Assembly (NCBI GenBank): GCA_016840465.1
Contig: JAEOSH010000043.1
Location: 1-20,873, forward strand
Source: Candidatus Baldrarchaeum yapensis
Lineage (GTDB): Archaea > Asgardarchaeota > Baldrarchaeia > Baldrarchaeales > Baldrarchaeaceae
Direction: 5' to 3'
DNA length: 20,873 nt
The notes under the pieces: model-generated
The model's input: only the letters and a program-made list of their open reading frames with translations
What the model was told of the DNA's origin: nothing
The model's database searches: none
Program-made: the position numbers and the translations under genes
In this document: one piece after another, positions 238 through 20,095 of the stretch
Numbering within the stretch: the stretch's first letter is position 1
Layout of the letters: each line of letters begins with the position of its first letter

Positions 238-675
238 TTAAAACTCTACGAGGGCGAAAAGAGATTCTGAGGGTCTAACAACCCCATTCCTCATTTTTAT
301 GAAACCAAGCCTTTCTAAGTATTTGAGATCCTCGAGCACGGTTTTCACTTCCACGCCACGCTCCTTAGCGACTTCCTCTATTTTTGCTTCTCCCTTTCCT
401 GCACATAATTTTATGACCGCAAATAGCGTTGCCTTCACTCTATCCGGTAGGAACCCCTCACCCTCGGTAAAAGCCAGATGCCACGTTTTTGAAAGAGGAT
501 TGTACATGAGTGAGAACCCCAGGAGAGATAACATGTATGAAACCCTCTCTAACGCCTTAATCGCACAAACTTCTCCAAAATCGTCCTCACGTAGGCCTAA
601 GAGCCTTATTATCTCCCGTAGGGATATTCCTTTGCCTCCCAAAAGCCTGCTCAACAATGCCGTGACCTCATTCAA
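238..675 (-). CDS. scpB: ScpB-like KITE subunit (tandem winged helix)
   Basis: 145 aa with two WH-like halves. LPDRVKATLFAVI…IEEVAKERGV…LKYLERLGFIK matches the ScpB WH-B pattern (LS..aLETLAiI…raEIeeiRGV…L..L.erGlI). It is the last gene after SMC and kleisin and overlaps the upstream gene by 8 nt. Confidence 0.75.
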   Translation of the reverse strand: MNEVTALLSRLLGGKGISLREIIRLLGLREDDFGEVCAIKALERVSYMLSLLGFSLMYNPLSKTWHLAFTEGEGFLPDRVKATLFAVIKLCAGKGEAKIEEVAKERGVEVKTVLEDLKYLERLGFIKMRNGVVRPSESLFALVEF

Positions 676-1234
676 TCATGATCACCTCGTTTTTGTCTTC
701 AGATAGCGATAGTCTCCCCGAAGATATCAATCTGAGGAGTGCAACGAATGCCATCAGCGTGGACCATCGATCTCCCATTTTAACCACATTTTCTACGCTC
801 GCCCTCCCTCCTTGCTCCGTTAAAAGCGAAAGTACCAGTCTAGACGCTCTTTTCAAGATATCCTCAAACCTTACGATACTTATCTCGACGTGTGGAGCCT
901 CAGAGCCTAACTCTATATGCTCGGTGAGCTCTTCTGCTTCTAAGCACCTCCTCTTCTCCGATAGCGATTTTAATCTCTCGAATGCTCTTCTGAGATCGTC
1001 GATTCCAATAAAGGGGAACATCAATGGAACTCCGGCTATTTTGATCTCTGGTTGTTCTCCCTCAAGGTTCATTAGTATGAGGTTTGCTATTTCGCGGATC
1101 TCCCTCTCGATAAGATCCAAAATTCTTGCAATTATCCTTAATGCTTCCCTTAGATCCATATTGTCGATCTCGGCAAGCACCTTTGAAATTAGCAAATTTA
1201 CGTCGCCACCGCTGCCCATCATAAGGGTCACCAT
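668..1234 (-). CDS. scpA: ScpA-like kleisin (short); likely start ATG 1222
   Basis: DVNLLISKVLAEIDNMDLREALRIIARIL resembles the ScpA N-terminal helical region, IGIDDLRRAF resembles the 'vTLdeLi.AL' motif, and C-terminal FVALLRLISSGRLSL resembles the kleisin cap WH (FLALLeL…G.v.l). It lies directly after SMC, with GGTGA 6 nt before ATG 1222. Confidence 0.75.
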   Translation of the reverse strand: MVTLMMGSGGDVNLLISKVLAEIDNMDLREALRIIARILDLIEREIREIANLILMNLEGEQPEIKIAGVPLMFPFIGIDDLRRAFERLKSLSEKRRCLEAEELTEHIELGSEAPHVEISIVRFEDILKRASRLVLSLLTEQGGRASVENVVKMGDRWSTLMAFVALLRLISSGRLSLSEDKNEVIMIE

Positions 1235-4200
1235 TCCAGCTCTATTATCCTGCTAACGCCGCGGTCTTTCTGCAACACCACTCCGTAAATCTTATCGGCG
1301 AACAATCCGATGTCGGCGTGCTTATCCGGCACAAATACCAGCACCTGCCTTCCCTTTGAATTCTTACTGAGAATTTTCGCCGCAACGGTGCTATGCCTGA
1401 TGTCTAAGAAGATGACCGGCTCGTCGTAGGCAAATATGCGGCTGTGCGATCTCCTCTGAAGTGCACATATGAACGCTATTGCTATGATTGTCTGTTGACC
1501 CTTACTGAAGGTCTTGATGGCACGTTCAACGCCATCGCCTGTTTTTGCCCTCATCACCAAGCCCAGTTCCTCGAAGCTACCATCCAATGTGGCGCTGCAC
1601 CGTATGTCGATGTTGTTCTCCTCAAGCACGCTATTAACTTCCCTGATAATTGAATCCACCTCCTTCCTCAACTCCTCCAAGTACTTATCTTTCAACTTCT
1701 CCATGAGTTGGCTGACGGCACTTATTTTCCTCTCTACCTCGTTTATTCGCCTAGAAATTTCCTTTCGACTCTCCTGTAGCTGCTTTACCCTGTCCAGCAC
1801 ACTCTCATCGACTTCTCCCAGTTCTTCCAGTTCCTGCAATACCACCTCCTTGCGCGCCCTTATTTCTGCGATAGAGCGCACCTTCGAAGGGCGTTCGACT
1901 CCCATAATTTTAACCGAACTGTAGAGATTACCGAGTTCCTCCTCGATACGCCTAATCTCTTCCTCCAACGTCTCCATCTTCCTACTCACGTCCTGATATC
2001 TCTCATCGAATCTGCCCAACTCCTCACGAAGTTTCTCCTTGCGCTCTTTCAGTTTCGATATCTCCCTATCCACGCCCTCGATACTCGATTTGATTTCTTT
2101 TTTCTTCCCCTCCAGCAGTTCGACATTCTTCAGGCTTTTTCTCAAGTCGGCATCTGCCCTTTCCAACTCTTCCTCCAATTCGACCTTCACTGATGCCTTC
2201 TCGTTAATTCTGGTATCAATGCCTACGAGCATTTTCTCCAACTCTGTTATCAGATTTTTGCCCCTCTCAACCATCCTGTCCACTTTTTTCAACTCTCTAT
2301 CGTTCCTCTTCAACCCTTTCTCTATAGCGTCCAGCATGCCAATGAGTTTATCGTAATCTGCCGGTTTCCGCCCCTCTATTTCCTTTAACCCTGCGAGCGC
2401 CTCGTCAACTCTCCTCTTATACTCTTCTAACTCTTTCTTCAACCGCGATACTCTCTCCTTAGCATTTTCTATCTCCTCACGCAGACGAAGCTTGCGCTCG
2501 TGGAGTTCTCTCCATTTCGGGATCAGGTTGAGCAACTCTCTTATTCTTTCCAACTCTCTCCCATATCGCTCTACGTCATCCGATAATTGCTTACGCTTCT
2601 CCTCCAAGGTCTTCCGCCTATCTTCCAACTCTTCGAGCATCGCTTGGAGCCTTTTAACGCTGAGGAGACCGCGAGGTTCCCGCCTTGCCACCATTTTAAT
2701 GACGTAATTACGCCCCTCCACAACTTCGCCGTCCAGCGTGACGAATCTATAGTTGTACTTTCGGGAGAGTCTTATTGCACTATCTAGGTCTCTCACAACC
2801 ACAACTCTGCCGCAGATATCCCTTATCACGGGTCTCAGTTCCTCGGGAAACGTTATCAGGTCTTCGAGCCATCCCACGACTCCCTCCTCCCTTAGCTCCT
2901 CCTTCTCCTCAACCCGCTCGACCTTGGGCATGTAGATCGATACTCCGCGTGCGCGGTACTTCCTTCTTCTGAGGTCGTTTAAGATGTCGTTTTGTATCTC
3001 TTTTAATATCTTGAGGTCCATCTCGTCAAATACCACGAACGATAAGAGATCCCCGCCAAATATTATTTCGACGACCTCCGCGTACTCGTCCGGGACCTCC
3101 ATGTGCTTCATCAGCGGCCCCATAGCGTTAATGCCCCTTCTCTCAACTTCCTTTTCCAGCCTTGTGACCTCCTCCGGTATGCGTTTATCTCTGCTCAGAA
3201 GCTTCGCCCTCAACTCCCTAATCTCCCCGTCAAGGTTCGCCAGTTCCTTGGTGATCCTCCCCAGTTCTCCGATCAGTTCGCCCCTCTTCCTTTCGAGATC
3301 CTCCATTCTCCTCCTCAATTCTTCCTCGTTGTAATGCTCAATCTCCTCTCCAATTTCCTGAATCTCCTTGTTAACCTTCGCAAGTTCCTCATGTAGATCC
3401 CTGAGCCTGTCCATTTCGGCATCAACTTCTTTTTTCTTCTCCTCGAACGCCCTTCTCTCCGAATTATACAGTTCTCTTGCCTTAGACCATTCTCCTTCCC
3501 ACTCACGATAGTCCTTGAGTTTGTTCTCGACCTCCCTCTTCCTCTCATGTAGTTTCTCGATCTTCTGCTCGATCCTTGCTCTTCTATGTTTCAGTTCTGT
3601 GACCCTTTTCTCAACATTTCTGATGCATCCCTCGAGGACCCTTTTCTCTCGATCAAGTCTCTCCATCTCCGCTCTCAGGCGTTCAATCTTACCTATTATC
3701 TTGTCGTACTCCTTACGCTTCTCCTCGATCTTCATATTTTCGGCAGCAATTTCACCTTCCACCTTTCTCAGCACTTCCTCGAGCGACTTCTTCTTTTTCT
3801 CCAATTCCTCGATCCGTTTTCTGGTTTCAGAGATCATTGCGTTGATCCTCTCGATCTCATGGGCTAGATCTCCGCATTTCCCCTTCAATTCTTCCATTTT
3901 TCTTCTGCGTTCTGCAAGTTCTCGCTCCCTTTCAGATATCTCCGCCCATAGTTCCTCCGCTTCCAGTTTTTTAAGTTCCTCCTCCAGCTTTCTCTTTCTC
4001 TCCAATTTTTTGATCTGCGGACGTAGGTTCATCTCCTCCGAGTTGAGGGCCCTTAATTCCTCCTCCAGCAGTTTCTTTCTCTCCGACAGTTCCCTAATTT
4101 TATCAAGTTTATCTAGGATTTCCCTCCGATGCCCCGCAAGTCCTGTGATTTCCTCCACTGCCTCCCTCAGAGCAATGGGGTCGAGATCCTTGATCGCATC

Positions 4201-4605
4201 TATCTTCCCTTGAGGGCAGAATACGAACGGGTTGCCGGGGTCGGTCTCCAGTTCCCTGACTATCCTTCTGACGCTCTCGGCAGTTGTGAGTTTGCCGTTG
4301 ACGAAGTACTGTGGGGGCCTTCCCCTTACGACCCTTCTCCTAATGGTAATTGATTCCTGTCCATTGCTGAGCACCACCTCGACCCATGCCTCATTACAGC
4401 CGTGCCTGATGAAGTCCGACCAGCGCGGATACCTCTCATCCTTTTGGTTCGATCCCAAGACGAACCTTAGCGCCTGGAAGAGCGCGGTCTTCCCGGATCC
4501 GTTTTCCCCAACGAAAACTAAGAGTCCATCTTCGAGGTTTATCTCCTCATGTGCGTACGAGAGAAAATTATGGAGCGTTAACTTTACGATCCGCACCCCC
4601 TCCAC
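1228..4605 (-). CDS. smc: SMC-family ATPase with hinge; atypical head (start GTG 4605 or 4596)
   Basis: 1125 aa. Walker A GENGSGKT (aa 33-40), Q-loop FCPQGKI, two long coiled coils around an SMC hinge (GPLMKHMEV…FVTLDGEVVE), signature-like FSKGQ, Walker B IFAYDE and D-loop FLD. Confidence 0.95.
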   Translation of the reverse strand: MEGVRIVKLTLHNFLSYAHEEINLEDGLLVFVGENGSGKTALFQALRFVLGSNQKDERYPRWSDFIRHGCNEAWVEVVLSNGQESITIRRRVVRGRPPQYFVNGKLTTAESVRRIVRELETDPGNPFVFCPQGKIDAIKDLDPIALREAVEEITGLAGHRREILDKLDKIRELSERKKLLEEELRALNSEEMNLRPQIKKLERKRKLEEELKKLEAEELWAEISERERELAERRRKMEELKGKCGDLAHEIERINAMISETRKRIEELEKKKKSLEEVLRKVEGEIAAENMKIEEKRKEYDKIIGKIERLRAEMERLDREKRVLEGCIRNVEKRVTELKHRRARIEQKIEKLHERKREVENKLKDYREWEGEWSKARELYNSERRAFEEKKKEVDAEMDRLRDLHEELAKVNKEIQEIGEEIEHYNEEELRRRMEDLERKRGELIGELGRITKELANLDGEIRELRAKLLSRDKRIPEEVTRLEKEVERRGINAMGPLMKHMEVPDEYAEVVEIIFGGDLLSFVVFDEMDLKILKEIQNDILNDLRRRKYRARGVSIYMPKVERVEEKEELREEGVVGWLEDLITFPEELRPVIRDICGRVVVVRDLDSAIRLSRKYNYRFVTLDGEVVEGRNYVIKMVARREPRGLLSVKRLQAMLEELEDRRKTLEEKRKQLSDDVERYGRELERIRELLNLIPKWRELHERKLRLREEIENAKERVSRLKKELEEYKRRVDEALAGLKEIEGRKPADYDKLIGMLDAIEKGLKRNDRELKKVDRMVERGKNLITELEKMLVGIDTRINEKASVKVELEEELERADADLRKSLKNVELLEGKKKEIKSSIEGVDREISKLKERKEKLREELGRFDERYQDVSRKMETLEEEIRRIEEELGNLYSSVKIMGVERPSKVRSIAEIRARKEVVLQELEELGEVDESVLDRVKQLQESRKEISRRINEVERKISAVSQLMEKLKDKYLEELRKEVDSIIREVNSVLEENNIDIRCSATLDGSFEELGLVMRAKTGDGVERAIKTFSKGQQTIIAIAFICALQRRSHSRIFAYDEPVIFLDIRHSTVAAKILSKNSKGRQVLVFVPDKHADIGLFADKIYGVVLQKDRGVSRIIELEW

Positions 4606-5515
4606 CCCCTACCATGCTCCTTATCCTCTCAACAGCCTTCTTCGCTCTCATCAACCTGATGATCCTCCTCTCACGATCATCTAGCAGTATAAACGAGCAC
4701 TTAGCGAGAAGGATTTCCAGTTTCCTATCGAGGGGTTGCCCGATGTTGATCTTACGTATTAGCTTCTCGAACTCCTGCCCGTACTCGCTGATTGCCATCA
4801 TGTACATTTGATCCAGCATGTCGTCGGGAACCACGCTCTCCACAACCTTAGGCGCTGGCGGAAAGATTATCCTCTCGAGACAAAAGATAAAGTCCTCCGT
4901 CTTAACAACGTCCCTGTTGTTGCCGAACGCATAAGAAACCGCCATCTTGACGAGATTTATCAGGTCCGTCGCATAGAGTCCCTCCGTCATCTCTATTATC
5001 TTTCTCAGGTCGATATCGTACTTTACACCGTCGAGTAATACCCTCAGCGCCTCCCCCCTCTCACTTGGCCCCGGTTCATGCACTCTTAATACGAACTCGT
5101 TTATTGTTAGCGGGTTTTCCAATGGCGGGCTCAGCACCACTATTAAAAACTTCCCGTCGAAGGCCCTATTCTTAAGGAGATCCATCACGTGATCACAACT
5201 TGCCCACGTTAAAAGCACGACTTCCCTGAACTTAGAAGGTTCCATATGCTCGTTGGCCGATATTTCTGTTATATCTATGTTCATTTCGTTCAATACTGAT
5301 TTTATCGCTAAATCTATCATCGATCTGGGATCCGCATAAAGGATGACCCTAGATACCGGTTCCACTCTCAGGTTTTCCGTGAAAAACGTGCGGTTCCTCC
5401 ATGCAGTTATCAGAGCCTTCAATGCCTCTACTGTGTCCCTGCAACAGATGTTTGCGACGGCCTTGACCTTCTCCTCCCACGTGGCAACCCTTTTCTCTTT
5501 CTCACTCTCCGCCAT
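4568..5515 (-). CDS. Inactive classic-clade (PAN/Cdc48/FtsH-like) AAA+ domain protein with C-terminal helical extension
   Basis: LRVEPVSRVILYADPRSMIDLAIKSVLNEMN aligns to '[28 protein letters not shown]' with the P-loop destroyed. No hhhhDE Walker B (VVLLTW instead). EPGPSERGEALRVLL…DIDLRKIIEMTEGLYATDLINLVKMA…DVVKTEDFIFCLERI is a recognisable AAA lid. Confidence 0.7.
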   Translation of the reverse strand: MAESEKEKRVATWEEKVKAVANICCRDTVEALKALITAWRNRTFFTENLRVEPVSRVILYADPRSMIDLAIKSVLNEMNIDITEISANEHMEPSKFREVVLLTWASCDHVMDLLKNRAFDGKFLIVVLSPPLENPLTINEFVLRVHEPGPSERGEALRVLLDGVKYDIDLRKIIEMTEGLYATDLINLVKMAVSYAFGNNRDVVKTEDFIFCLERIIFPPAPKVVESVVPDDMLDQMYMMAISEYGQEFEKLIRKINIGQPLDRKLEILLAKCSFILLDDRERRIIRLMRAKKAVERIRSMVGGGGGADRKVNAP

Positions 5516-7283
5516 AGTATCCTCTCACCTCCTCTATGACCATCTTGGGGAGATCGTTTGCATCCTGCACGGGATAGATTTTTCCTCCCATTTGGAAGAA
5601 CGTTTTGAACTTTTTGCTCTGCAGATCCTCCTCCCTGCCGCCTATCAAGAACAGTACTATCTTGTGCCCCATTGACGCGATCTCCATTAGGCCCCTTAAT
5701 GCCTGCTTCCAGTTGTAGATCTCCGCATCGCTTATTATCAGAACCAACACCTGATCCCTCGCCTTTTGCACCAGCTCAATCAACTCCTCTATCGGAAGTT
5801 CCGTTCCTCCGCCCTGGTACGTCAGTAAGCAGTCCTCCACTTTCTTCCTGTCTCTGGTCCACTCACAAGTTATGGGCTCGTCCGAGAAGTTCAGCACCGC
5901 CATCCTGCAGTTTTTCCTCATTGCAAAATCCAAGGCAGCGAATGCGGACACTAGTGCCGCATCATACGGTCCCGATGGTCCGGCCGGGTTCCATAATTCC
6001 CAGAACATGCTACCTGAGCTATCTATCACTATAAGGAGGTCGGGAGGGGCACTTTTCTCACCATGCCTTTCGCTTTTCCTTTTTACCCATTTTCTGGTGG
6101 TAATGTTCGGAATGAGAACCGGGAATGTTTGAAGAGATTGCACGATGTCCAACTCCTCTATTGGGTCGCCGATACGCCACACCGTGGTGTATGCGGGCAA
6201 TGCGCTTCCCTCTCTTTTAACCCGCATTTTTATTTCGATCTTTGAGGCCGCTCTTGCGCGATACCAGAACCTTAAGAGGTCATGCCCCCTCAACATCGGA
6301 GACAGACCCAGTGAGGCAGAGGCGAACTTTCCAAAGTCTTGCCCTCGCTCTACAAACCGCCTCGCTATTTTTTCAAGGTCCTCCTCTGATAGTTCGCCCT
6401 TCCCCTCAGCGGCCTCCTTATCACGTATCTCCATGGGGTTTCCACGCATCAGGATAATAACATCTTTAGGAACTTCTGCAGGTGATCTTTCTTCTTCGGC
6501 ATCGGGCTTAGTGGCCATGGGGGACCCTGTTGACGACCCTCCGCAACCTGTGAGCATGGGTGCCGGCACTCCTAAACAGATGCCCTCACGGACTTCCTCC
6601 ATCAGCACGTCTCTTAGTATCTGTGCGACCCTGCGAGTCCTCTCGGGCCACGAGTTCTCGTCATCTATTCCATCCCTGACGGCATTTGCAAGTTCTCGCG
6701 CTATTCTGTCCTCCCTTTTTCCAATGTCTAGGCGAATCGGAAATCTAACACCCCACAGGTATTCATAGGTTCGGACGAGTATTTTGAATAGGGCACTCGG
6801 AGATCCGGTTACTCTAACCGCCTCTCTTATTATCACCTCGAGTGACCACAGCGTGTCATCCCGGAACATCTTAAACAGTTTTGTTTCGACCACGAGATCG
6901 GCAAACACGTTTACTGCGAAAACCGCGCGCATTGGGTCGAGTACAGATGCCGCCTCGGCGACCATGAACGAGGAATTAATTCTATCATATGGACAGTAGA
7001 TGTAATGTCCGATTTCATGCCTTGCCATACATCTGAAAAACCTGAGGAGCTCCGTTTCTCCAAGCTGGGGATGTCGAGCAACGTTCATATGAACCCGCCA
7101 ATCCTCCTCGCTTATGTAGAAGCCCGATGTTTTCATCTCGTCATATTCTATTTCCGGCTCGGGGATCGGTGGGTTGAGGAAGTCCGCGAGCGCGAGGTTA
7201 TACCCCTCCCTTGCGATATGCATAACTCTCTCCGGCGGAATCCCCCTCCCTCTGCGGAAGATTTTACCTAGCGCTTTCTCCAT
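5502..7283 (-). CDS. Zincin-like metallopeptidase (HExxH) fused to a VWA domain (MoxR partner, DUF2201-like architecture)
   Basis: HEIGH at aa 89-93 (7005-7019) followed by NVFADLVV. The C-terminal VWA has a complete MIDAS: LLIVIDSSGSM, GGGT, IISD. GGTGA RBS, 4 nt after the MoxR stop. Confidence 0.85.
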   Translation of the reverse strand: MEKALGKIFRRGRGIPPERVMHIAREGYNLALADFLNPPIPEPEIEYDEMKTSGFYISEEDWRVHMNVARHPQLGETELLRFFRCMARHEIGHYIYCPYDRINSSFMVAEAASVLDPMRAVFAVNVFADLVVETKLFKMFRDDTLWSLEVIIREAVRVTGSPSALFKILVRTYEYLWGVRFPIRLDIGKREDRIARELANAVRDGIDDENSWPERTRRVAQILRDVLMEEVREGICLGVPAPMLTGCGGSSTGSPMATKPDAEEERSPAEVPKDVIILMRGNPMEIRDKEAAEGKGELSEEDLEKIARRFVERGQDFGKFASASLGLSPMLRGHDLLRFWYRARAASKIEIKMRVKREGSALPAYTTVWRIGDPIEELDIVQSLQTFPVLIPNITTRKWVKRKSERHGEKSAPPDLLIVIDSSGSMFWELWNPAGPSGPYDAALVSAFAALDFAMRKNCRMAVLNFSDEPITCEWTRDRKKVEDCLLTYQGGGTELPIEELIELVQKARDQVLVLIISDAEIYNWKQALRGLMEIASMGHKIVLFLIGGREEDLQSKKFKTFFQMGGKIYPVQDANDLPKMVIEEVRGYYGGE

Positions 7284-7287
7284 GTGA

Positions 7288-8997
7288 TCACCCCGTCAGT
7301 ATCTTCAGGAGTTTTTCGGCATCAGGGCCCGATATCTCGAGATACACGGGGTCATCATCCTCGGTTCCCGTGACGCTGACGGAGATCGTCACCCATGGAG
7401 TCCTGACAAAGCAGTATCCGATTCTTTCGAATAATGGTTTCAGCGATTCGTAGATTCTCCTATCCGGCACTTTGGCGATTATCTTCGGTCCTAAGTTCCT
7501 CCACTCCTTGAATGTTATCCGCACCATCTCGCATGTTAGTTTGTGTATTTGCCGATCCACTCTATCCAGGAGCCTCTCCCTGTAGGGTATATCCACGTCA
7601 CTGCTGAGTTTCTCCCTTATTTTTGCGAGGTCGCTCACCTTACCTGCTGTTATCGCCTTCTCTATCTCCGTAACGAACTTCCTGTACTTAGGAGAGTTTA
7701 GTTGCTTCACCAGCGGTAAAATGTCCACCTTGACAACGATGTCGCTACGCGCCCACAGTTCGAGTTTCTGAATGTCTTCTTTCGTCCCCGTCCCGCGCTC
7801 AAACTTTTCTAGGATGTCATATGCTTCCATCCGCGCGATGAACCGGTCCTTCACCAACTTCATAATATGTCTCGTAAACTTGAGCGGGTCCCCATAAAAT
7901 GGATGCTCGCGGAGGTTCTTATCGGAATACTGCACACGATGCCATACTACAAATGGTGCAATCGCCTCCACAACCTCTATCGTCACCCTATCCAAGTTTA
8001 GAAGCCATGCCAATGCTTTCGCATATCTGCTGATGTCCTTCGCTGCTCTTACGCTCAATGGAGTCAGTATCTTGTTACAGGGACATTTATCCGTGTTGAA
8101 GTGGCAACCCTGACACAGCCCGGTGTCTGGTCTGAGAATTCGGGCGTTCTCCTTACTCACCCGTATGCATGCCTTGTATTCGGAAATTATGCTACTTATG
8201 AATCTGGCGGCCCTAGGGTCGAGTTCCATTCTCTCGACCATGCCCCATATCTGCATCAGTTCCTTCTCGGTCAGAATTGCGGGGATTTGGTAATATTCAT
8301 CGAAACCGTAAAGTTTCTCGTCTTGGGTTCCGAGGATCACCTGCATCTCGACAGAGGAGGGCATTGTCACGGGAACCGCGATGCCGAACCTGTCAAGGAA
8401 GGGCAACCCCATTTCAAAGGTTCCTACGTCCTGAGGGTTCAGCGTCGCGTACAGCACGAAGTTTTCGCAACGGTATACTTTGTCAAAGTACTTTACCTGT
8501 CCTTCCGCAAGCAAAGATAGGAGGATGTCTTGGGCGTATGGACTAAGTCTATTCACCTCGTCGACAATCTTCCAGAAGTCCGTAACGAATCTCCTCCACA
8601 CGACGTCCTCTACTCCCTCTTTTAGTAACTTTCCCGGCTTAAGAGTGGCGACCATCTTCTCCTCCGTTATGTACGGGTGCGCCCTTACGACCGCCTCCTC
8701 TATCTCCCTTAACGACTTTCCGGTAAGCATCCTCCCGAGAATCTTAACGAGGGTGGTTTTACCACCCCCATGTCCCCCATATAGCAGCATCGTCCCACGG
8801 GGGACCAGCGCGTTAATGACCGCGAGTGTGAGGATTAATGGCAATCGCTTGACGGAGTATCGGCCGCTTCGGCCGGACGGAACCTTCACTTCTAGGCGTT
8901 CGCCGTGAACAAATAGTCTATGCACTTCAACCGTGTTTATTACTTCCCAGACCTTTCGCCTGAGGCTGTCCTCGGAGGCGCGGGGCAACCCGCACAC
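7288..8997 (-). CDS. MoxR-like (helix-2-insert clade) AAA+ ATPase with N- and C-terminal extensions
   Basis: Walker A GGHGGGKTT, Walker B KIVDEVNR, sensor I ATLNP, Arg finger FLDRF, sensor II LSVRAAK, and lid end APFVVWHRV. Adjacent to a VWA gene, as is typical for MoxR. Confidence 0.9.
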   Translation of the reverse strand: MCGLPRASEDSLRRKVWEVINTVEVHRLFVHGERLEVKVPSGRSGRYSVKRLPLILTLAVINALVPRGTMLLYGGHGGGKTTLVKILGRMLTGKSLREIEEAVVRAHPYITEEKMVATLKPGKLLKEGVEDVVWRRFVTDFWKIVDEVNRLSPYAQDILLSLLAEGQVKYFDKVYRCENFVLYATLNPQDVGTFEMGLPFLDRFGIAVPVTMPSSVEMQVILGTQDEKLYGFDEYYQIPAILTEKELMQIWGMVERMELDPRAARFISSIISEYKACIRVSKENARILRPDTGLCQGCHFNTDKCPCNKILTPLSVRAAKDISRYAKALAWLLNLDRVTIEVVEAIAPFVVWHRVQYSDKNLREHPFYGDPLKFTRHIMKLVKDRFIARMEAYDILEKFERGTGTKEDIQKLELWARSDIVVKVDILPLVKQLNSPKYRKFVTEIEKAITAGKVSDLAKIREKLSSDVDIPYRERLLDRVDRQIHKLTCEMVRITFKEWRNLGPKIIAKVPDRRIYESLKPLFERIGYCFVRTPWVTISVSVTGTEDDDPVYLEISGPDAEKLLKILTG

Positions 8998-9044: not shown

Positions 9045-9054
9045 TTTTAAATAA
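9045..9054 (-). promoter_or_regulatory. Candidate TATA box for the MoxR-VWA-SMC operon
   Basis: TTATTTAAAA on the minus strand about 50 nt upstream of GTG 8997. Confidence 0.5.
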
Positions 9055-9981: not shown

Positions 9982-10389
9982 TTATCGAGTTGTTTGACCG
10001 ATTTCTAACTCTATGAGCTTTAATCCGTATCTTTTAAGCCGTTCAAAATGCTTCTTATTTCTTGCCCAGAGAAACGCGCCCCTCTGGATGGCCGTAGCGG
10101 CAATTATGGCGTCACGTGGATCCAGGGCCTCCCCCCGGTTCATCAGATCGGCCTCTATTTTTGCCGCGCAGTCGGCGGCCTCTATTGATATCGGCAAAAC
10201 CCCGAAGTATTTCTTGAGCAGATTCTTAAGGTAGCCTTGATCGGTCTTATACGCTCCCGTCATAAATTCGAAGTAAACCACAGCGCAGATCTTCAGATCG
10301 TACTTTTCCATGAGGCTAATAATTTTCTTAGGGTCGCCCTTCTCCAGCAGATCTATCAGCACGTCCGTATCTAGATGTACCTCGTTCAT
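9982..10389 (-). CDS. vapC: PIN-domain (VapC-family) toxin
   Basis: VHLDTDVLID, YFEFMTG, DPRDAIIAATA and RNKKHFER. Acidic PIN residues are present, though the usual 'T.D/N' position reads ARN. Confidence 0.9.
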   Translation of the reverse strand: MNEVHLDTDVLIDLLEKGDPKKIISLMEKYDLKICAVVYFEFMTGAYKTDQGYLKNLLKKYFGVLPISIEAADCAAKIEADLMNRGEALDPRDAIIAATAIQRGAFLWARNKKHFERLKRYGLKLIELEIGQTTR

Positions 10390-12013: not shown

Positions 12014-12481
12014 ATGCGTAGGATTGAGGTTTCCGAGGGAATTTATGAGATCCTTTTGGAAATCGCCAGAATAAGGGGCAAAAGTATAGAAGAGATCATT
12101 GTTGAATCCGTTATTGAAGACCTAGATCCCAGAACAAGGATCGAGGTATACTTAAAACTCCATGAGAAGTTTCTGCGAGAGGCGGAGGATTTCTACGCCA
12201 AGGGCGATCTTGTACAGGCTGGTGAGAAGTACTGGGGCGCTGCAACGGCCCTCATCAATGCAATTGGTGAGAAAAGGGGATGGAAACATTACAGCCACAG
12301 GGACTATGCCGAAATTATAGAAAGATTATCCGAGGAGTTAAAAGAACCGCTGGGAAGGCTCTTTGCAAGCGTTGAGAGATTACACGCGAATTATTACCAT
12401 AATTTCCTGACAAAAACGAACTTCGAAGCGCATAGGGAGGATGCGCTTAAACTCATCACGAAACTCAAAGAACTCGTATGA
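12014..12481 (+). CDS. PaREP1-family (HEPN-like) protein with N-terminal RHH-like segment
   Basis: FLREAEDFYAKGDLVQAGEKYWGAA…KHYSHRDY…ERLHANYYH is the PaREP1 pattern (QA.EK.w.A…LH.nfY). Confidence 0.88.
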   Translation: MRRIEVSEGIYEILLEIARIRGKSIEEIIVESVIEDLDPRTRIEVYLKLHEKFLREAEDFYAKGDLVQAGEKYWGAATALINAIGEKRGWKHYSHRDYAEIIERLSEELKEPLGRLFASVERLHANYYHNFLTKTNFEAHREDALKLITKLKELV

Positions 12482-12569: not shown

Positions 12570-13568
12570 TTATAAAATGGATGGCCTGGTGCGGGCCATT
12601 CTCGAAGCCATTTCCTCCAGTGTATCTTTCTCCTTTGTCCTGACGGGCGCCACGAAAAGGTAATAGAGGCTTTCTCTCCGGCAGAGGGCAATTCCGTAAA
12701 GGTTTCCGTCTTTGCTTCTGAACCTTATGGCGTCACCGGCACCTCTTTTCTTCGTCTCTATGATCTCGAAGTCCATTTCACCGAAATCAGGGACTTTCAC
12801 ATCGTATTTCTCCTTCTTCTTAAATCTGAGAGCGTCGAGGGCAAAAGTTCTCGCAACCTTCTCTGCAACTCTTTCCCAAGCCCTAGGTGAGCCGTAGAGC
12901 TCCAGTGCCATGAACTCCCCGTTTATGAAGATGGCGGCACCAACCTGCCCCTCGACGCTCTTGAAGTTCCTAACGTATTCATCGACTTCATCGCTCTTTC
13001 GCTCGAACACGGCGGTTAGATCTGCAGTTGAGCTAGACACATCATATGATACAAGATAAGCACTTGCCATCGACCACACAGATCTCTGGGGAAGGAACTT
13101 TTCTTTGAGAGCAAGAGTCCTTAATAGCCGTGGCGCCGTATATTCCTTAGCGACCTTCATTTTCAATTCTCCTGAACCTCTGGAGATAGGGTGCCACCTT
13201 CCTGCCTCTATGCAGCGAACCTCTACGGTCATGGTAATGGGCTCTTCTTGGGTTGCGGGTATCAGGAAGGGCTCAAAGATCAGGCGGTTCTGGAGCCCCG
13301 CCTTTAGATTAACGAACGCGGGTATTAGGACATCAACATTTGCATTACTCGTTACGCTTACGGCCTCAACGCGAGCGCTAGGAAGCTCCTCCACCTTTAC
13401 TAGGCCCTGTTCCTCTGCATCGTCTATCAGGATAAATTCTGGCTCGTGCAACGCTCCCTTGGAGATTATCGGAATAATGGTGAGGTTCTTGTACGTTTGC
13501 GGCTCTCCGAACTCGTAAAACTCACCAAAGTTGTTTAAAATACTTTTGAGTACGGATACCTCCTGCAT
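12570..13568 (-). CDS. ARPP-1 / DUF6569-like protein
   Basis: GEPQTYKNLTIIPI, LKAGLQNR, VRCIEAGRWH, QRSVW and GQVGAAIFINGEFMALELYGSP match the family pattern (G.kQNR, sCVE.GRW, Q..VW). GGAGG RBS. Confidence 0.75.
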   Translation of the reverse strand: MQEVSVLKSILNNFGEFYEFGEPQTYKNLTIIPIISKGALHEPEFILIDDAEEQGLVKVEELPSARVEAVSVTSNANVDVLIPAFVNLKAGLQNRLIFEPFLIPATQEEPITMTVEVRCIEAGRWHPISRGSGELKMKVAKEYTAPRLLRTLALKEKFLPQRSVWSMASAYLVSYDVSSSTADLTAVFERKSDEVDEYVRNFKSVEGQVGAAIFINGEFMALELYGSPRAWERVAEKVARTFALDALRFKKKEKYDVKVPDFGEMDFEIIETKKRGAGDAIRFRSKDGNLYGIALCRRESLYYLFVAPVRTKEKDTLEEMASRMARTRPSIL

Positions 13569-13670: not shown

Positions 13671-14234
13671 TTACGCTTGTTGCTTTGCCTCCATGTGGGC
13701 ACGTTCCTTTAATATCCCTAGGAGTTCTTTCACGTATTTCAGTCGCGCCCTGACCTGCTCCGGTTTAAGTCTCGCCTCATGGAATCCCTCGACGTGTAGG
13801 AAGTATGCATGGTCCCAGTCGTCGTATATTCTCTCATTAATTTTTTCACTTAGCTTCCTCGCGGCGGCATCGAGTAAAGACAATGTCCATCTTCCTCGCT
13901 CTTTAGCTTTATTTGCTTCTTCGAGTTTCTCGGCTACTGCGAGGGCCTTAATGGCTTCTTCAGCCACCTTATACAGCTTTTCACATGCCTGAACGGTGTC
14001 TTTATCGACGAGTTTCTCGCCCTCTTCGAGGTACTTTTCGGCGAGTTCGGCTCTGGCTCTGACCTCATCCGTGGGATCCATGTTGAGTTCATGTATGAGT
14101 ACATCGATTAGTTTGGCTTCTACGTCGACGCCTAGGTCTCTGAGACGTCTAGCAACGGTTTCGGGTAGCCTGATAACGACTTTATAGATCATATTCATCA
14201 CGAATGTTTTTTCGTCCGACACGTTACTTACCAT
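13671..14234 (-). CDS. PaREP1-family (HEPN-like) protein; likely start ATG 14192 or 14198
   Basis: AEKYLEEGEKLVDKDTVQACEKLYKVAEEAIKALA…GRWTLSLL…WDHAYFLHVEGFHEARL is a typical PaREP1 C-terminus. Confidence 0.88.
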   Translation of the reverse strand: MVSNVSDEKTFVMNMIYKVVIRLPETVARRLRDLGVDVEAKLIDVLIHELNMDPTDEVRARAELAEKYLEEGEKLVDKDTVQACEKLYKVAEEAIKALAVAEKLEEANKAKERGRWTLSLLDAAARKLSEKINERIYDDWDHAYFLHVEGFHEARLKPEQVRARLKYVKELLGILKERAHMEAKQQA

Positions 14235-18311: not shown

Positions 18312-18988
18312 TCAGTTATGCACACACTTCTTAATTGAATATACTAGTTCAAGAAACCTGATCAAATGGCCGAATGCCGATCTTAATGTTTCCTCCCTAG
18401 ATTCCTCAATTAATCTTATAACATCCTTAATGCTGTTCAAATTGCGAAGTTTTAGGAACTCTTTTGCATCACGATAGCCTTTGAGAATTTCTTTGTCAAA
18501 CTTCTCTTCTAAAAGTAATAAACGGGCTATATAGTCCTCTATAAAATGGCTTTCAAAGGGAGATCCCTAATTCCGGAGACAAGTATGAGTATTGGAAATT
18601 TTCCGTTTTTAATATCAAATAAATTTTCATCGACCGCATTCAGTTCTTTAACTGGAACTCCACTCGATTTTAACGAGTTCATGACGGATCGTGCTCTCTG
18701 CTCGTAATCATACTCATCCGCATCAATTATAACTCCAATAACTTTGATTTTCTTGGAAATTTGCGATAAAGTCGCAATATAGCTTGTAATTTCACGTATT
18801 GCTGGTACGCCTTCACAATCCGTCACTCCCATGTTAATATCCGGCAATTCTAATTTCTTAATGATGGCTTTTAGCACCTCCGCATCGGTCCTCCCTTCAC
18901 AAAGCACTATGACCTCTAACTCTTTAACAATTTTCCTAGCAAGTGCGTAAAACGCATTTTCATGAGGCTTTAACTGAACTATCGGCAC
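18312..18988 (-). pseudogene. TOPRIM-fold protein (DUF3226/OLD-like) with a -1 frameshift (pseudogene, error or recoding)
   Basis: VLCEGRTD and IIDAD TOPRIM motifs. Frame 0 stops at 18539-18541. The -1 frame from 18554-18560 continues PFESHFIEDYIARL…KKCVHN* to 18312, restoring 225 aa. Confidence 0.8.
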
Positions 18989-19000
18989 ATCTATGCCTCC

Positions 19001-20095
19001 TCATATAATGTCCAGAAATCTGGGGTCTATTCCCATTCTATCAAGTACGCTGACGTTTTCCGGCGTTAGTCGCCGCACATTCACATTGCCGGCCTTATCT
19101 CTCTCCATGAAGAAGATAGCGACATCTACATTCTTTTCTCTGGCAATTGCGTTCAAGAGTTTTATGAGTTCGAGGCTATGAGTCGTTATGAACGCCTGGA
19201 CCCTGTTCTCCATCACCATCTCAAGAAAAATTTCGAGAGTCTTAGCAAGCCCGCTGGGATGCTGGTGATTCTCGGGTTCCTCGATGAGAACTGCCGTATT
19301 CTTGGATAACGCGGCTACCATTATTATCATCATGGAGACCTTTGCACCATCGCCCAAATCGTCAACTCTGACGATTGCATCCGGCAACTTTACGACCAAC
19401 TGGAAGATTTCACCGTACGGCACATAGGTTATGTCTTCGGCCTCCACGTCGTATCCGCTCTTCAACATCCGAATTATTATCTTATCAAGCCTATATTTCA
19501 GCAGATCCCTCCACAAAATCTTCTCAACATGCTCTATTTCACGCATCAGATTTGCATCTATGAACTCCATATCGCTTAGGAATCTTCTTACCTTCTCACC
19601 TCGTCCCCCGACAAACTCGTCCAAAACGCGCATTACGAGGTCCGTGGAAGTCTTCATCATGGACTTGTTTTTCGAATTTACGGCGCCATAATGTATTAGG
19701 CACATGTGATCGAAATCTCTATATGGCACCTCCAAGATCGGATGCTCATGCCACTCGAAAAGTTTCGTCTTTAACTTAATACCATCACAGAACACAAATT
19801 CCACTTCTATCGGATCCTCACACTTATACATGTGCCACAAAACCTCACGGTCCCTATCCCACGTTAACCCTCTGAACCCCCTCCGATTCAGGAGGTAGGA
19901 GATCTTATCCGATATACCGTCTTTCTTATGAAGTCTCTCCTCGAACTTAAAAGCGGCAGACGCTAAATATATGGCTTCGAGAAGCGAAGACTTCCCACTA
20001 TTGTTCCTACCTATAAACACGTTCACCCTGCTCAAACCTTCAATCTTGCAACTCTTTATTGCTCGATAATTCTTGATCTCGAGAGATGTTATCAT
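19001..20095 (-). CDS. ABC-type ATPase of the AAA_15/AAA_21 (OLD/AriA-like) group
   Basis: LEIKNYRAIK, Walker A GRNNSGKS, signature-like LGDGAK, Walker B VLIEEPENHQHP and H-switch FITTHS. It sits 12 nt upstream of the TOPRIM gene. Confidence 0.9.
   Translation of the reverse strand: MITSLEIKNYRAIKSCKIEGLSRVNVFIGRNNSGKSSLLEAIYLASAAFKFEERLHKKDGISDKISYLLNRRGFRGLTWDRDREVLWHMYKCEDPIEVEFVFCDGIKLKTKLFEWHEHPILEVPYRDFDHMCLIHYGAVNSKNKSMMKTSTDLVMRVLDEFVGGRGEKVRRFLSDMEFIDANLMREIEHVEKILWRDLLKYRLDKIIIRMLKSGYDVEAEDITYVPYGEIFQLVVKLPDAIVRVDDLGDGAKVSMMIIMVAALSKNTAVLIEEPENHQHPSGLAKTLEIFLEMVMENRVQAFITTHSLELIKLLNAIAREKNVDVAIFFMERDKAGNVNVRRLTPENVSVLDRMGIDPRFLDII

Follow-up and report, generated by a model that had tools for sequence, protein, structure and literature searches.

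No known organisms are more closely related to eukaryotes than the Asgard archaea. A second, "SMC5/6-related" protein of the structural maintenance of chromosomes (SMC) type has been described in the TACK and Asgard archaea, where it is encoded in SMC–kleisin–kite operons beside the canonical set (Yoshinaga & Inagaki 2021, 10.1101/2021.05.15.444277; van Hooff et al. 2024/25, 10.1101/2024.01.07.573240), and the second SMC complex of the Asgard archaea has been proposed as the ancestor of Smc5/6. An example from MK-D1, genes 495–497, is given in the supplement of van Hooff et al. (10.1101/2024.01.07.573240). The characterised pairs of a MoxR ATPase and a VWA protein serve very different clients (PMC9976466, PMC13036017). 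Here, we describe a six-gene locus of the Asgard archaeon Candidatus Baldrarchaeum yapensis, in which both kinds of module stand side by side on contig JAEOSH010000043.1. The window is this whole 20.9-kb contig (20,873 nucleotides, nt) of a 2.27-Mb genome that is 96% complete. We found that the SMC core of the locus is of an already known kind, that its conserved operon contains a fourth gene encoding a pseudo-AAA protein (pAAA), and that the link of the MoxR–VWA pair to this SMC is conserved over class-level distances and through rearrangement, but is not universal.

The open reading frame (ORF) listing places six minus-strand ORFs of 569, 593, 315, 1125, 188 and 145 amino acids (aa) at 238–8997. 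In the order of transcription, the features of the operon are as follows.

9045–9051, minus strand: TATA-like box TTTAAAA, a candidate operon promoter by its sequence, 54 nt upstream of the MoxR start.
7288–8997, minus strand: gene 1, MoxR-type AAA+ ATPase of 569 aa, with Pfam AAA_5 and AAA_lid_2.
5502–7283, minus strand: gene 2, VWA/MIDAS adaptor of 593 aa with an HExxH N-domain (putative zincin); VWA domain, DSSGS and HEIGH.
4568–5515, minus strand: gene 3, pAAA of 315 aa; Pfam matches the AAA lid only, and the fold is assigned by profile and by AF2/Foldseek.
1228–4605, minus strand: gene 4, hinge-bearing SMC of 1125 aa, with SMC_N and SMC_hinge.
668–1234, minus strand: gene 5, probable kleisin of 188 aa, by its position and a weak ScpA likeness; no family is assigned.
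238–675, minus strand: gene 6, probable KITE subunit of 145 aa, by its winged helix and its place as last gene of the operon.

The first junction is a 4-nt gap, and it is followed by overlaps of 14, 38, 7 and 8 nt; the 38-nt overlap between the pAAA and SMC genes drops to 29 nt with an alternative GTG at 4596. GAGG/GGTGA-like motifs lie 5′ of five of the six starts, with a weak one at the 188-aa gene. In the window, these overlapping genes look translationally coupled. The co-orientation, the junctions, the ribosome-binding-site-like motifs and the one TATA-like box are all as a first-pass annotation of this DNA had stated, when checked against the ORF list and the motifs, and the gene identities that it gave hold by domain calls, motifs and folds. 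The six-gene arrangement is not due to chance: synteny of these genes extends to dozens of species from several Asgard lineages.

We compared the SMC protein with the canonical Smc. It scored 276 bits against TIGR02169 (cut-off 729) and 236 bits against a second canonical model, TIGR02168 (cut-off 567), and the canonical Smc proteins of neighbouring genomes scored 828–835 bits against TIGR02169. In the tree, the window-type SMC family formed a clade at 98/94 and the canonical Asgard Smc another at 100/100. No match to PF02616 (ScpA), PF04079 (ScpB) or the canonical Smc was obtained anywhere in this genome, of which the window SMC is the sole hinge SMC. With both scores below the cut-offs and neither ScpA nor ScpB in the genome, the locus does not encode a canonical Smc–ScpAB condensin.

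The window-type paralogue usually coexists with a canonical Smc (∼1200 aa)–ScpB in other genomes. A second, canonical Smc–ScpAB in the same genomes, the presence of which the first-pass annotation had left to be checked, accompanies the paralogue in most genomes but is absent from the genome under study. Among the relatives of the same order, G002 and G004 encode an Smc of canonical length (∼1190 aa), and neither the MoxR orthologue nor this SMC paralogue was found in any of the four (G001–G004). This pattern, a canonical-length Smc there and an SMC5/6-type protein here, reflects either reciprocal loss or transfer.

The window SMC fits the published SMC5/6-related complex, an assignment drawn from a tree that holds no eukaryotic sequences. 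It is a hinge SMC and a paralogue separate from the canonical Smc by both bit scores and clades, and the gene order, SMC, then kleisin, then kite, matches that of MK-D1, with the canonical set also present in relatives. The published operons and this one are alike in the second hinge SMC, in this gene order and in the coexistence with the canonical set in most genomes. The two papers, however, analyse the SMC, the kleisin and the kite only, whereas we observed a constant gene for a dead AAA protein together with a linked MoxR and zincin-motif VWA pair; moreover, in this genome the canonical Smc, ScpA and ScpB are all missing. The words AAA, VWA and von Willebrand do not occur in the text of the preprint by van Hooff et al. 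or in its supplement, MoxR is absent from both papers on the SMC5/6-related complex, and our full-text search of the literature yielded no paper combining an SMC with MoxR or VWA in archaea. As far as we have found in the literature searched, the dead-AAA fourth gene and the MoxR–VWA linkage are therefore undescribed. The first-pass annotation, which knew of no characterised system joining these modules, was thus overtaken for the SMC–kleisin–KITE part, which fits the published complex, and stands for its combination with MoxR–VWA.

One residue sets the window protein apart within its own family. Its ABC signature reads SKGQ, where the family has SGGQ; the glycine at this position, G1035, is conserved in 90% of the family. 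With this substitution, ATP-dependent engagement of the SMC heads may be weaker in this organism.

The two small genes are more divergent. In the loci examined, the kleisin gene always lies between the SMC gene and the winged helix-turn-helix (wHTH) gene. Its profile gave a weak match to the C-terminal winged helix of P. furiosus ScpA (4i99_C, E 1.1), and the Atlas retrieved ScpA clusters for it, at 0.90 on features and at TM 0.49 on structure. Taking together this position, the ScpA-like Atlas neighbours and the weak winged-helix match, gene 5 is a probable kleisin. The last gene gave wHTH matches only, in Pfam and in the profile search against PDB, all of them to generic wHTH regulators; its comparison with the Asgard ScpB by hhalign gave a non-significant 2% probability. 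A Pfam scan of 25 kleisin and nine KITE sequences revealed no ScpA, Nse4, Rad21, ScpB or MAGE domain. Across all families, the operon nevertheless ends in a conserved winged-helix gene, and by this position and its winged-helix fold, gene 6 is a probable KITE subunit.

We next consider gene 3. The profile of the pAAA family matched the D2 domain of Cdc48/p97 in PDB at 1e-21, and the AF2 model (pLDDT 87) matched FtsH, PAN and p97 in Foldseek at 3e-10. Thus, the protein has the fold of the classical AAA+ clade (Cdc48/PAN/FtsH), with the α/β core and AAA_lid_3, but neither Walker motif has its catalytic form (GxxGxGK[ST] for A, hhhhDE for B). The window protein has YADPRSMID at the place of the P-loop and VVLLTW at that of Walker B. 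Both motifs are degenerate across the family, with a P-loop consensus of GPPGTDF or worse, and an intact Walker A, GPLGTGKS, was present in only 1 of ∼78 longer family members. The family also has a conserved C-terminal helical domain of ∼80 aa.

Genes for this domain stand beside the SMC gene wherever the flank reaches far enough. A gene sharing it lay directly upstream of the SMC gene in all ten loci of the first relatives (271–438 aa), and pAAA held the same position in those 45 of the 80 loci described below that are linked to the SMC. Among 1.84 billion representatives, a profile of the domain retrieved only 108 clusters, in most of which it stands at the C-terminus. Three distant members (374, 603 and 562 aa), located through this domain only, are each encoded immediately upstream of a hinge SMC, which is followed, where the contig continues, by two small genes of ∼236–248 and 187–194 aa. 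The 374-aa member (P0160, L121:483–1607), whose gene overlaps the start of its SMC gene, has the Walker A GPLGTGKS and a PF00004 match, and therefore pAAA probably descends from an active AAA ATPase. Furthermore, pAAA stays beside the SMC even where MoxR–VWA is encoded on the opposite strand or at another place in the genome. From its position in the relatives and in the distant members, we concluded that the conserved core operon is pAAA–SMC–kleisin–KITE, and it is present in Jordarchaeales-, Thor-, Hermod- and Loki-type genomes. The first-pass annotation had grouped the dead AAA with the MoxR–VWA module; the synteny instead makes it a constant gene of the operon that encodes the SMC.

Gene 1 is a MoxR-type AAA+ ATPase with a VWA partner. 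Pfam identified AAA_5 (3.5e-10) followed by AAA_lid_2, and the Walker A (GGHGGGKT) and Walker B (DEVN) motifs are intact and invariant in an 11-sequence alignment; the adjacent VWA protein has a complete MIDAS of the form DxSxS..T..D. Four cysteines between the AAA core and the lid (C277, C295, C298 and C307, with the spacing C-x17-C-x2-C-x8-C) are invariant in 11 of 11 aligned orthologues and are likely to form a zinc site, absent from typical MoxR proteins. The protein also has a C-terminal extension of ∼200 aa. Across the Asgard families, the orthologues share 42–58% identity.

Gene 2 encodes a helical N-domain followed by a C-terminal VWA domain, in which the MIDAS residues D421-S-S-G-S425, T494 and D519 are invariant. 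The N-domain carries the motif HExxH..PYD, which reads HEIGH in the window; H89, E90, H93 and D100 are conserved in at least 90% of the family and P98 is invariant, and in a 26-sequence subset of N-domains the HExxH, P98, D100, N125 and D129 are all invariant. The AF2 model (pLDDT 84, pTM 0.80) has a VWA domain with a Z of 17, and its top Foldseek match in PDB is the VWA domain of NorD in the NorQ–NorD (NorQD) complex. Structure matches of the full-length model (Foldseek, VIA) were dominated by the VWA domain, and its AFDB cluster matches were unnamed or NorD/CoxE/ViaA-type entries. The N-domain gave no sequence match in Pfam (26 members) or, as a profile, in PDB; one cluster of structural look-alikes in the Atlas has Peptidase_M48 on 13% of its members. 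Structurally similar full-length proteins with a zincin motif and a VWA domain were found in bacteria. When the family was searched against 5.8 billion proteins, the best 120 matches were all from Asgard archaea, with uninformative names.

Of 400 sampled Asgard genomes, 208 had the MoxR orthologue and 206 this SMC paralogue, and the two were distributed over the same families. By a comparison of the two tables, both were present in 182 genomes, MoxR only in 26, the SMC only in 24 and neither in 168; many of the discordant genomes are incomplete metagenome-assembled genomes (MAGs), whereas the families f16 and f31 are genuine exceptions. Within families, the system is near-universal and single-copy (66–67 of 86 genomes in f7, 107–118 of 135 in f9 and 12–13 of 14 in f28), and its sequence identity tracks taxonomy.

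We assessed adjacency in the 80 species loci that the MoxR alignment had retrieved; 16 of these were too short for a judgement. MoxR–VWA was divergent from pAAA–SMC–kleisin–KITE in 43 loci (Thor- and Hermod-type) and colinear with pAAA/SMC, as in the window, in two (a Jordarchaeales contig and a related MAG), so that it adjoins this SMC in 45 of the 80. In six further loci, MoxR–VWA was convergent with ScpB and the canonical Smc. In two Loki-type families (L030, L031, L032 and L034; L087, L095, L098 and L111–L113), MoxR–VWA lies 0.02–5 kb from ScpB–canonical Smc and away from the SMC5/6-type operon; the neighbouring Smc is canonical by its 828–835 bits against the cut-off of 729 and by the PF04079 matches beside it. 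The colinear and divergent arrangements and their class-level spread underlie our conclusion that the link has been conserved through rearrangement without being universal. The conserved synteny beyond this genome, on which the first-pass annotation had staked its proposal, was thus borne out by these loci and by the phyletic co-occurrence. Its treatment of the six genes as one unit holds in part: the linkage recurs in many loci, but MoxR–VWA is unlinked in Loki-type families and sometimes stands beside the canonical ScpB–Smc.

On balance, we lean, without great confidence, towards the explanation that the core of the second (SMC5/6-related) complex of Asgard archaea, pAAA–SMC–kleisin–KITE, is joined by a MoxR and an HExxH/MIDAS-VWA protein that would remodel it, as the gene content, motifs, folds, synteny and co-occurrence together suggest. 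We infer all the physical interactions, the direction of action and any proteolysis in this scheme by analogy with NorQ–NorD, CbbQ–CbbO, RavA–ViaA and Rea1. The VWA protein would use its MIDAS and N-domain to dock on some component of the SMC holocomplex, possibly via pAAA or the kleisin, and the MoxR hexamer would then pull on the docked component using ATP. Pulling would remodel, open or disassemble the SMC–kleisin ring, in loading, unloading or turnover, and the HExxH site could possibly cut a subunit. The dead AAA would have a structural or a regulatory role as a subunit of this complex, and might be the docking point.

The likeness to the known MoxR/VWA pairs (NorQ–NorD, CbbQ–CbbO, RavA–ViaA, CoxD–CoxE and Rea1/Midasin) consists in an AAA_5 ATPase beside a VWA protein with a complete MIDAS. 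Here, however, the MoxR is ∼570 aa long and carries the invariant Cys4 insert as well as a tail of 200 aa, its VWA partner has a conserved HExxH N-domain, and the genomic partner of the pair is an SMC complex rather than a metalloenzyme or a ribosome precursor. Eukaryotic Smc5/6 (Smc5, Smc6, Nse4, Nse1/3, Nse2 and Nse5/6) likewise has an SMC–kleisin–KITE core with dedicated accessory subunits, and these regulate loading or ATPase activity. The accessory proteins of the Asgard locus (dead AAA, MoxR and VWA) are nevertheless unrelated in fold to Nse2 or Nse5/6, and its SMC is presumably a homodimer.

Several observations weigh against a remodeller dedicated to this SMC. Raw profile similarity discriminates nothing as to its SMC5/6-type nature: in PDB, the SMC profile scored 206 bits for Smc3, 195 for Smc2 and 195 for P. 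furiosus Smc, and only 157 for Smc5 and 131 for Smc6. The "peptidase" label of the VWA protein is putative and derives from its motif. In 13 of the 80 loci, MoxR–VWA has no SMC in either flank over at least 5 kb, and in Loki-type and other families (f9, f28, f29) the pair is not adjacent to this SMC. The families f16 and f31 keep a MoxR–VWA pair, with the HExxH lost, beside neither pAAA nor this SMC; in their loci (L035, L036, L039 and L040), the pair is downstream of a conserved gene of 440–483 aa. The genomes of these two families have a very divergent SMC of 1071–1088 aa, followed by genes of 227–229, 191–193 and 457–460 aa, the last of which, in L039, encodes the large subunit of DNA primase. 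Finally, kin are not independent, and the co-occurrence and the divergent synteny in Thorarchaeia could partly be inheritance.

A rival reading is that the adjacency has no functional meaning: the two would be independent housekeeping modules that chanced to be neighbours in an Asgard ancestor and were passed on together, and MoxR–VWA would serve another client, for example in metalloprotein maturation. The pair is unlinked from this SMC in the Loki-type families and in f29, alone in the 13 loci and beside no SMC5/6-type SMC in f16 and f31; the similar bacterial proteins and the very different clients of known pairs (PMC9976466, PMC13036017) point the same way. We regard this account as possible but doubtful, given that the linkage survives the change between colinear and divergent orientation across class-level lineages and that the phyletic profiles match family by family. 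Moreover, where the link is lost, a subset re-associates with ScpB–Smc in two families, and in the window itself the genes overlap and look translationally coupled. A narrower alternative is that MoxR–VWA acts on the dead AAA only, for example by assembling or recycling it as a chaperone client, and not on the SMC ring, with pAAA as no more than an indirect link between the modules. The pAAA gene indeed lies between the VWA and SMC genes and overlaps both in the window, and in Thor-type loci it faces MoxR across a divergent promoter. We consider this very unlikely, however: MoxR–VWA persists in f16 and f31, where a hidden Markov model search found no pAAA homologue near it, and in some Loki-type genomes it stands beside the canonical ScpB–Smc, which is without pAAA.

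The first-pass annotation had also offered defence as a role, and an SMC-based system against plasmids or viruses (Wadjet- or Lamassu-like), with MoxR and the VWA-peptidase as effector arm, has to be weighed. Wadjet and Lamassu are likewise operons of an SMC-superfamily ATPase with extra effector genes, the window SMC gave JetC and LmuB matches in PADLOC, and the window also holds PIN, PaREP1 and an AAA_15 plus OLD-like TOPRIM pair; in addition, eukaryotic Smc5/6 restricts viral DNA (PMC10586767). The JetC and LmuB matches were, however, generic and the only ones: PADLOC matched no model to the five non-SMC proteins and returned no JetA, JetB, JetD or LmuA. The locus is thus neither Wadjet (JetABCD) nor Lamassu (a short LmuB, an LmuA effector and LmuC), the SMC having a true, complete hinge and full-length arms and no effector being matched. 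PADLOC therefore excludes both systems, and the earlier remark that no JetD-like nuclease is in the operon proved right, as no nuclease is encoded. Unlike patchy mobile islands, the system is single-copy and near-universal in whole families and appears to be inherited vertically. The vWA–MoxR ternary conflict systems, in the survey of which SMC is not mentioned (Kaur et al. 2020, PMC7159879), are marked by VMAP, a third component that bears effector domains, and by being patchy and mobile in their distribution; here PADLOC gave no match for the five non-SMC proteins and the distribution looks vertical and near-universal, VMAP domains not having been searched specifically. Because PADLOC partners and a nuclease are lacking, the genes are single-copy and near-universal and their identity tracks taxonomy, we favour a housekeeping function in chromosome biology over defence, which we consider very unlikely.

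The rest of the contig holds unrelated features. The adjacent pair at 18539–20095 (minus strand), a 364-aa AAA_15/AAA_21 ATPase and a 149-aa DUF3226/OLD-like TOPRIM protein, could be an OLD/Gabija-like defence pair. The other genes include a PIN gene (9982–10389), two PaREP1 genes (12014–12481 and 13671–14234) and an ARPP-1 gene (12570–13568). A near-perfect long palindrome, ∼70 nt followed by its own reverse complement, occupies positions 1–140 at the contig start and most probably arose in assembly, as a hairpin or fold-back artefact at the contig end. Scans of the window for tRNA genes and with Rfam gave no matches.

Returning to the explanation of a remodeller linked to the second SMC complex, a more specific version of it draws on the eukaryotic ring openers. 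Separase and Wapl of cohesin, and Cdc48–Wss1, provide a functional analogy only, in which a dedicated protease or ATP-driven remodeller opens the SMC ring; with Cdc48–Wss1, the locus also shares a Cdc48-type AAA fold and a zinc-protease motif in one neighbourhood. Separase, Wapl and Wss1 have no homologue here, however, and the Cdc48-like protein of the locus is catalytically dead. By this analogy, the MoxR/zincin-motif-VWA pair might be an ATP-driven, MIDAS-targeted opener or protease of Asgard SMC–kleisin rings, a prokaryotic functional counterpart of ring release by separase/Wapl or of Cdc48-assisted extraction, acting via the dead Cdc48-like subunit on the SMC5/6-related complex and in some lineages also on the canonical Smc–ScpAB. 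We regard this version as unlikely; if true, regulated ring opening would predate eukaryotes.

To our knowledge, the loading, release and turnover of prokaryotic SMC rings are largely unexplained, and we know of no dedicated ATP-driven remodeller or protease tied to one. The dead-AAA subunit and the linked MoxR/VWA pair with its metal-protease motif are concrete candidates for such SMC regulators, and they add accessory subunits to the published archaeal SMC5/6-like operon. If the pair does remodel this complex, the client range of the MoxR–VWA chaperones would extend to chromosome-organising complexes.

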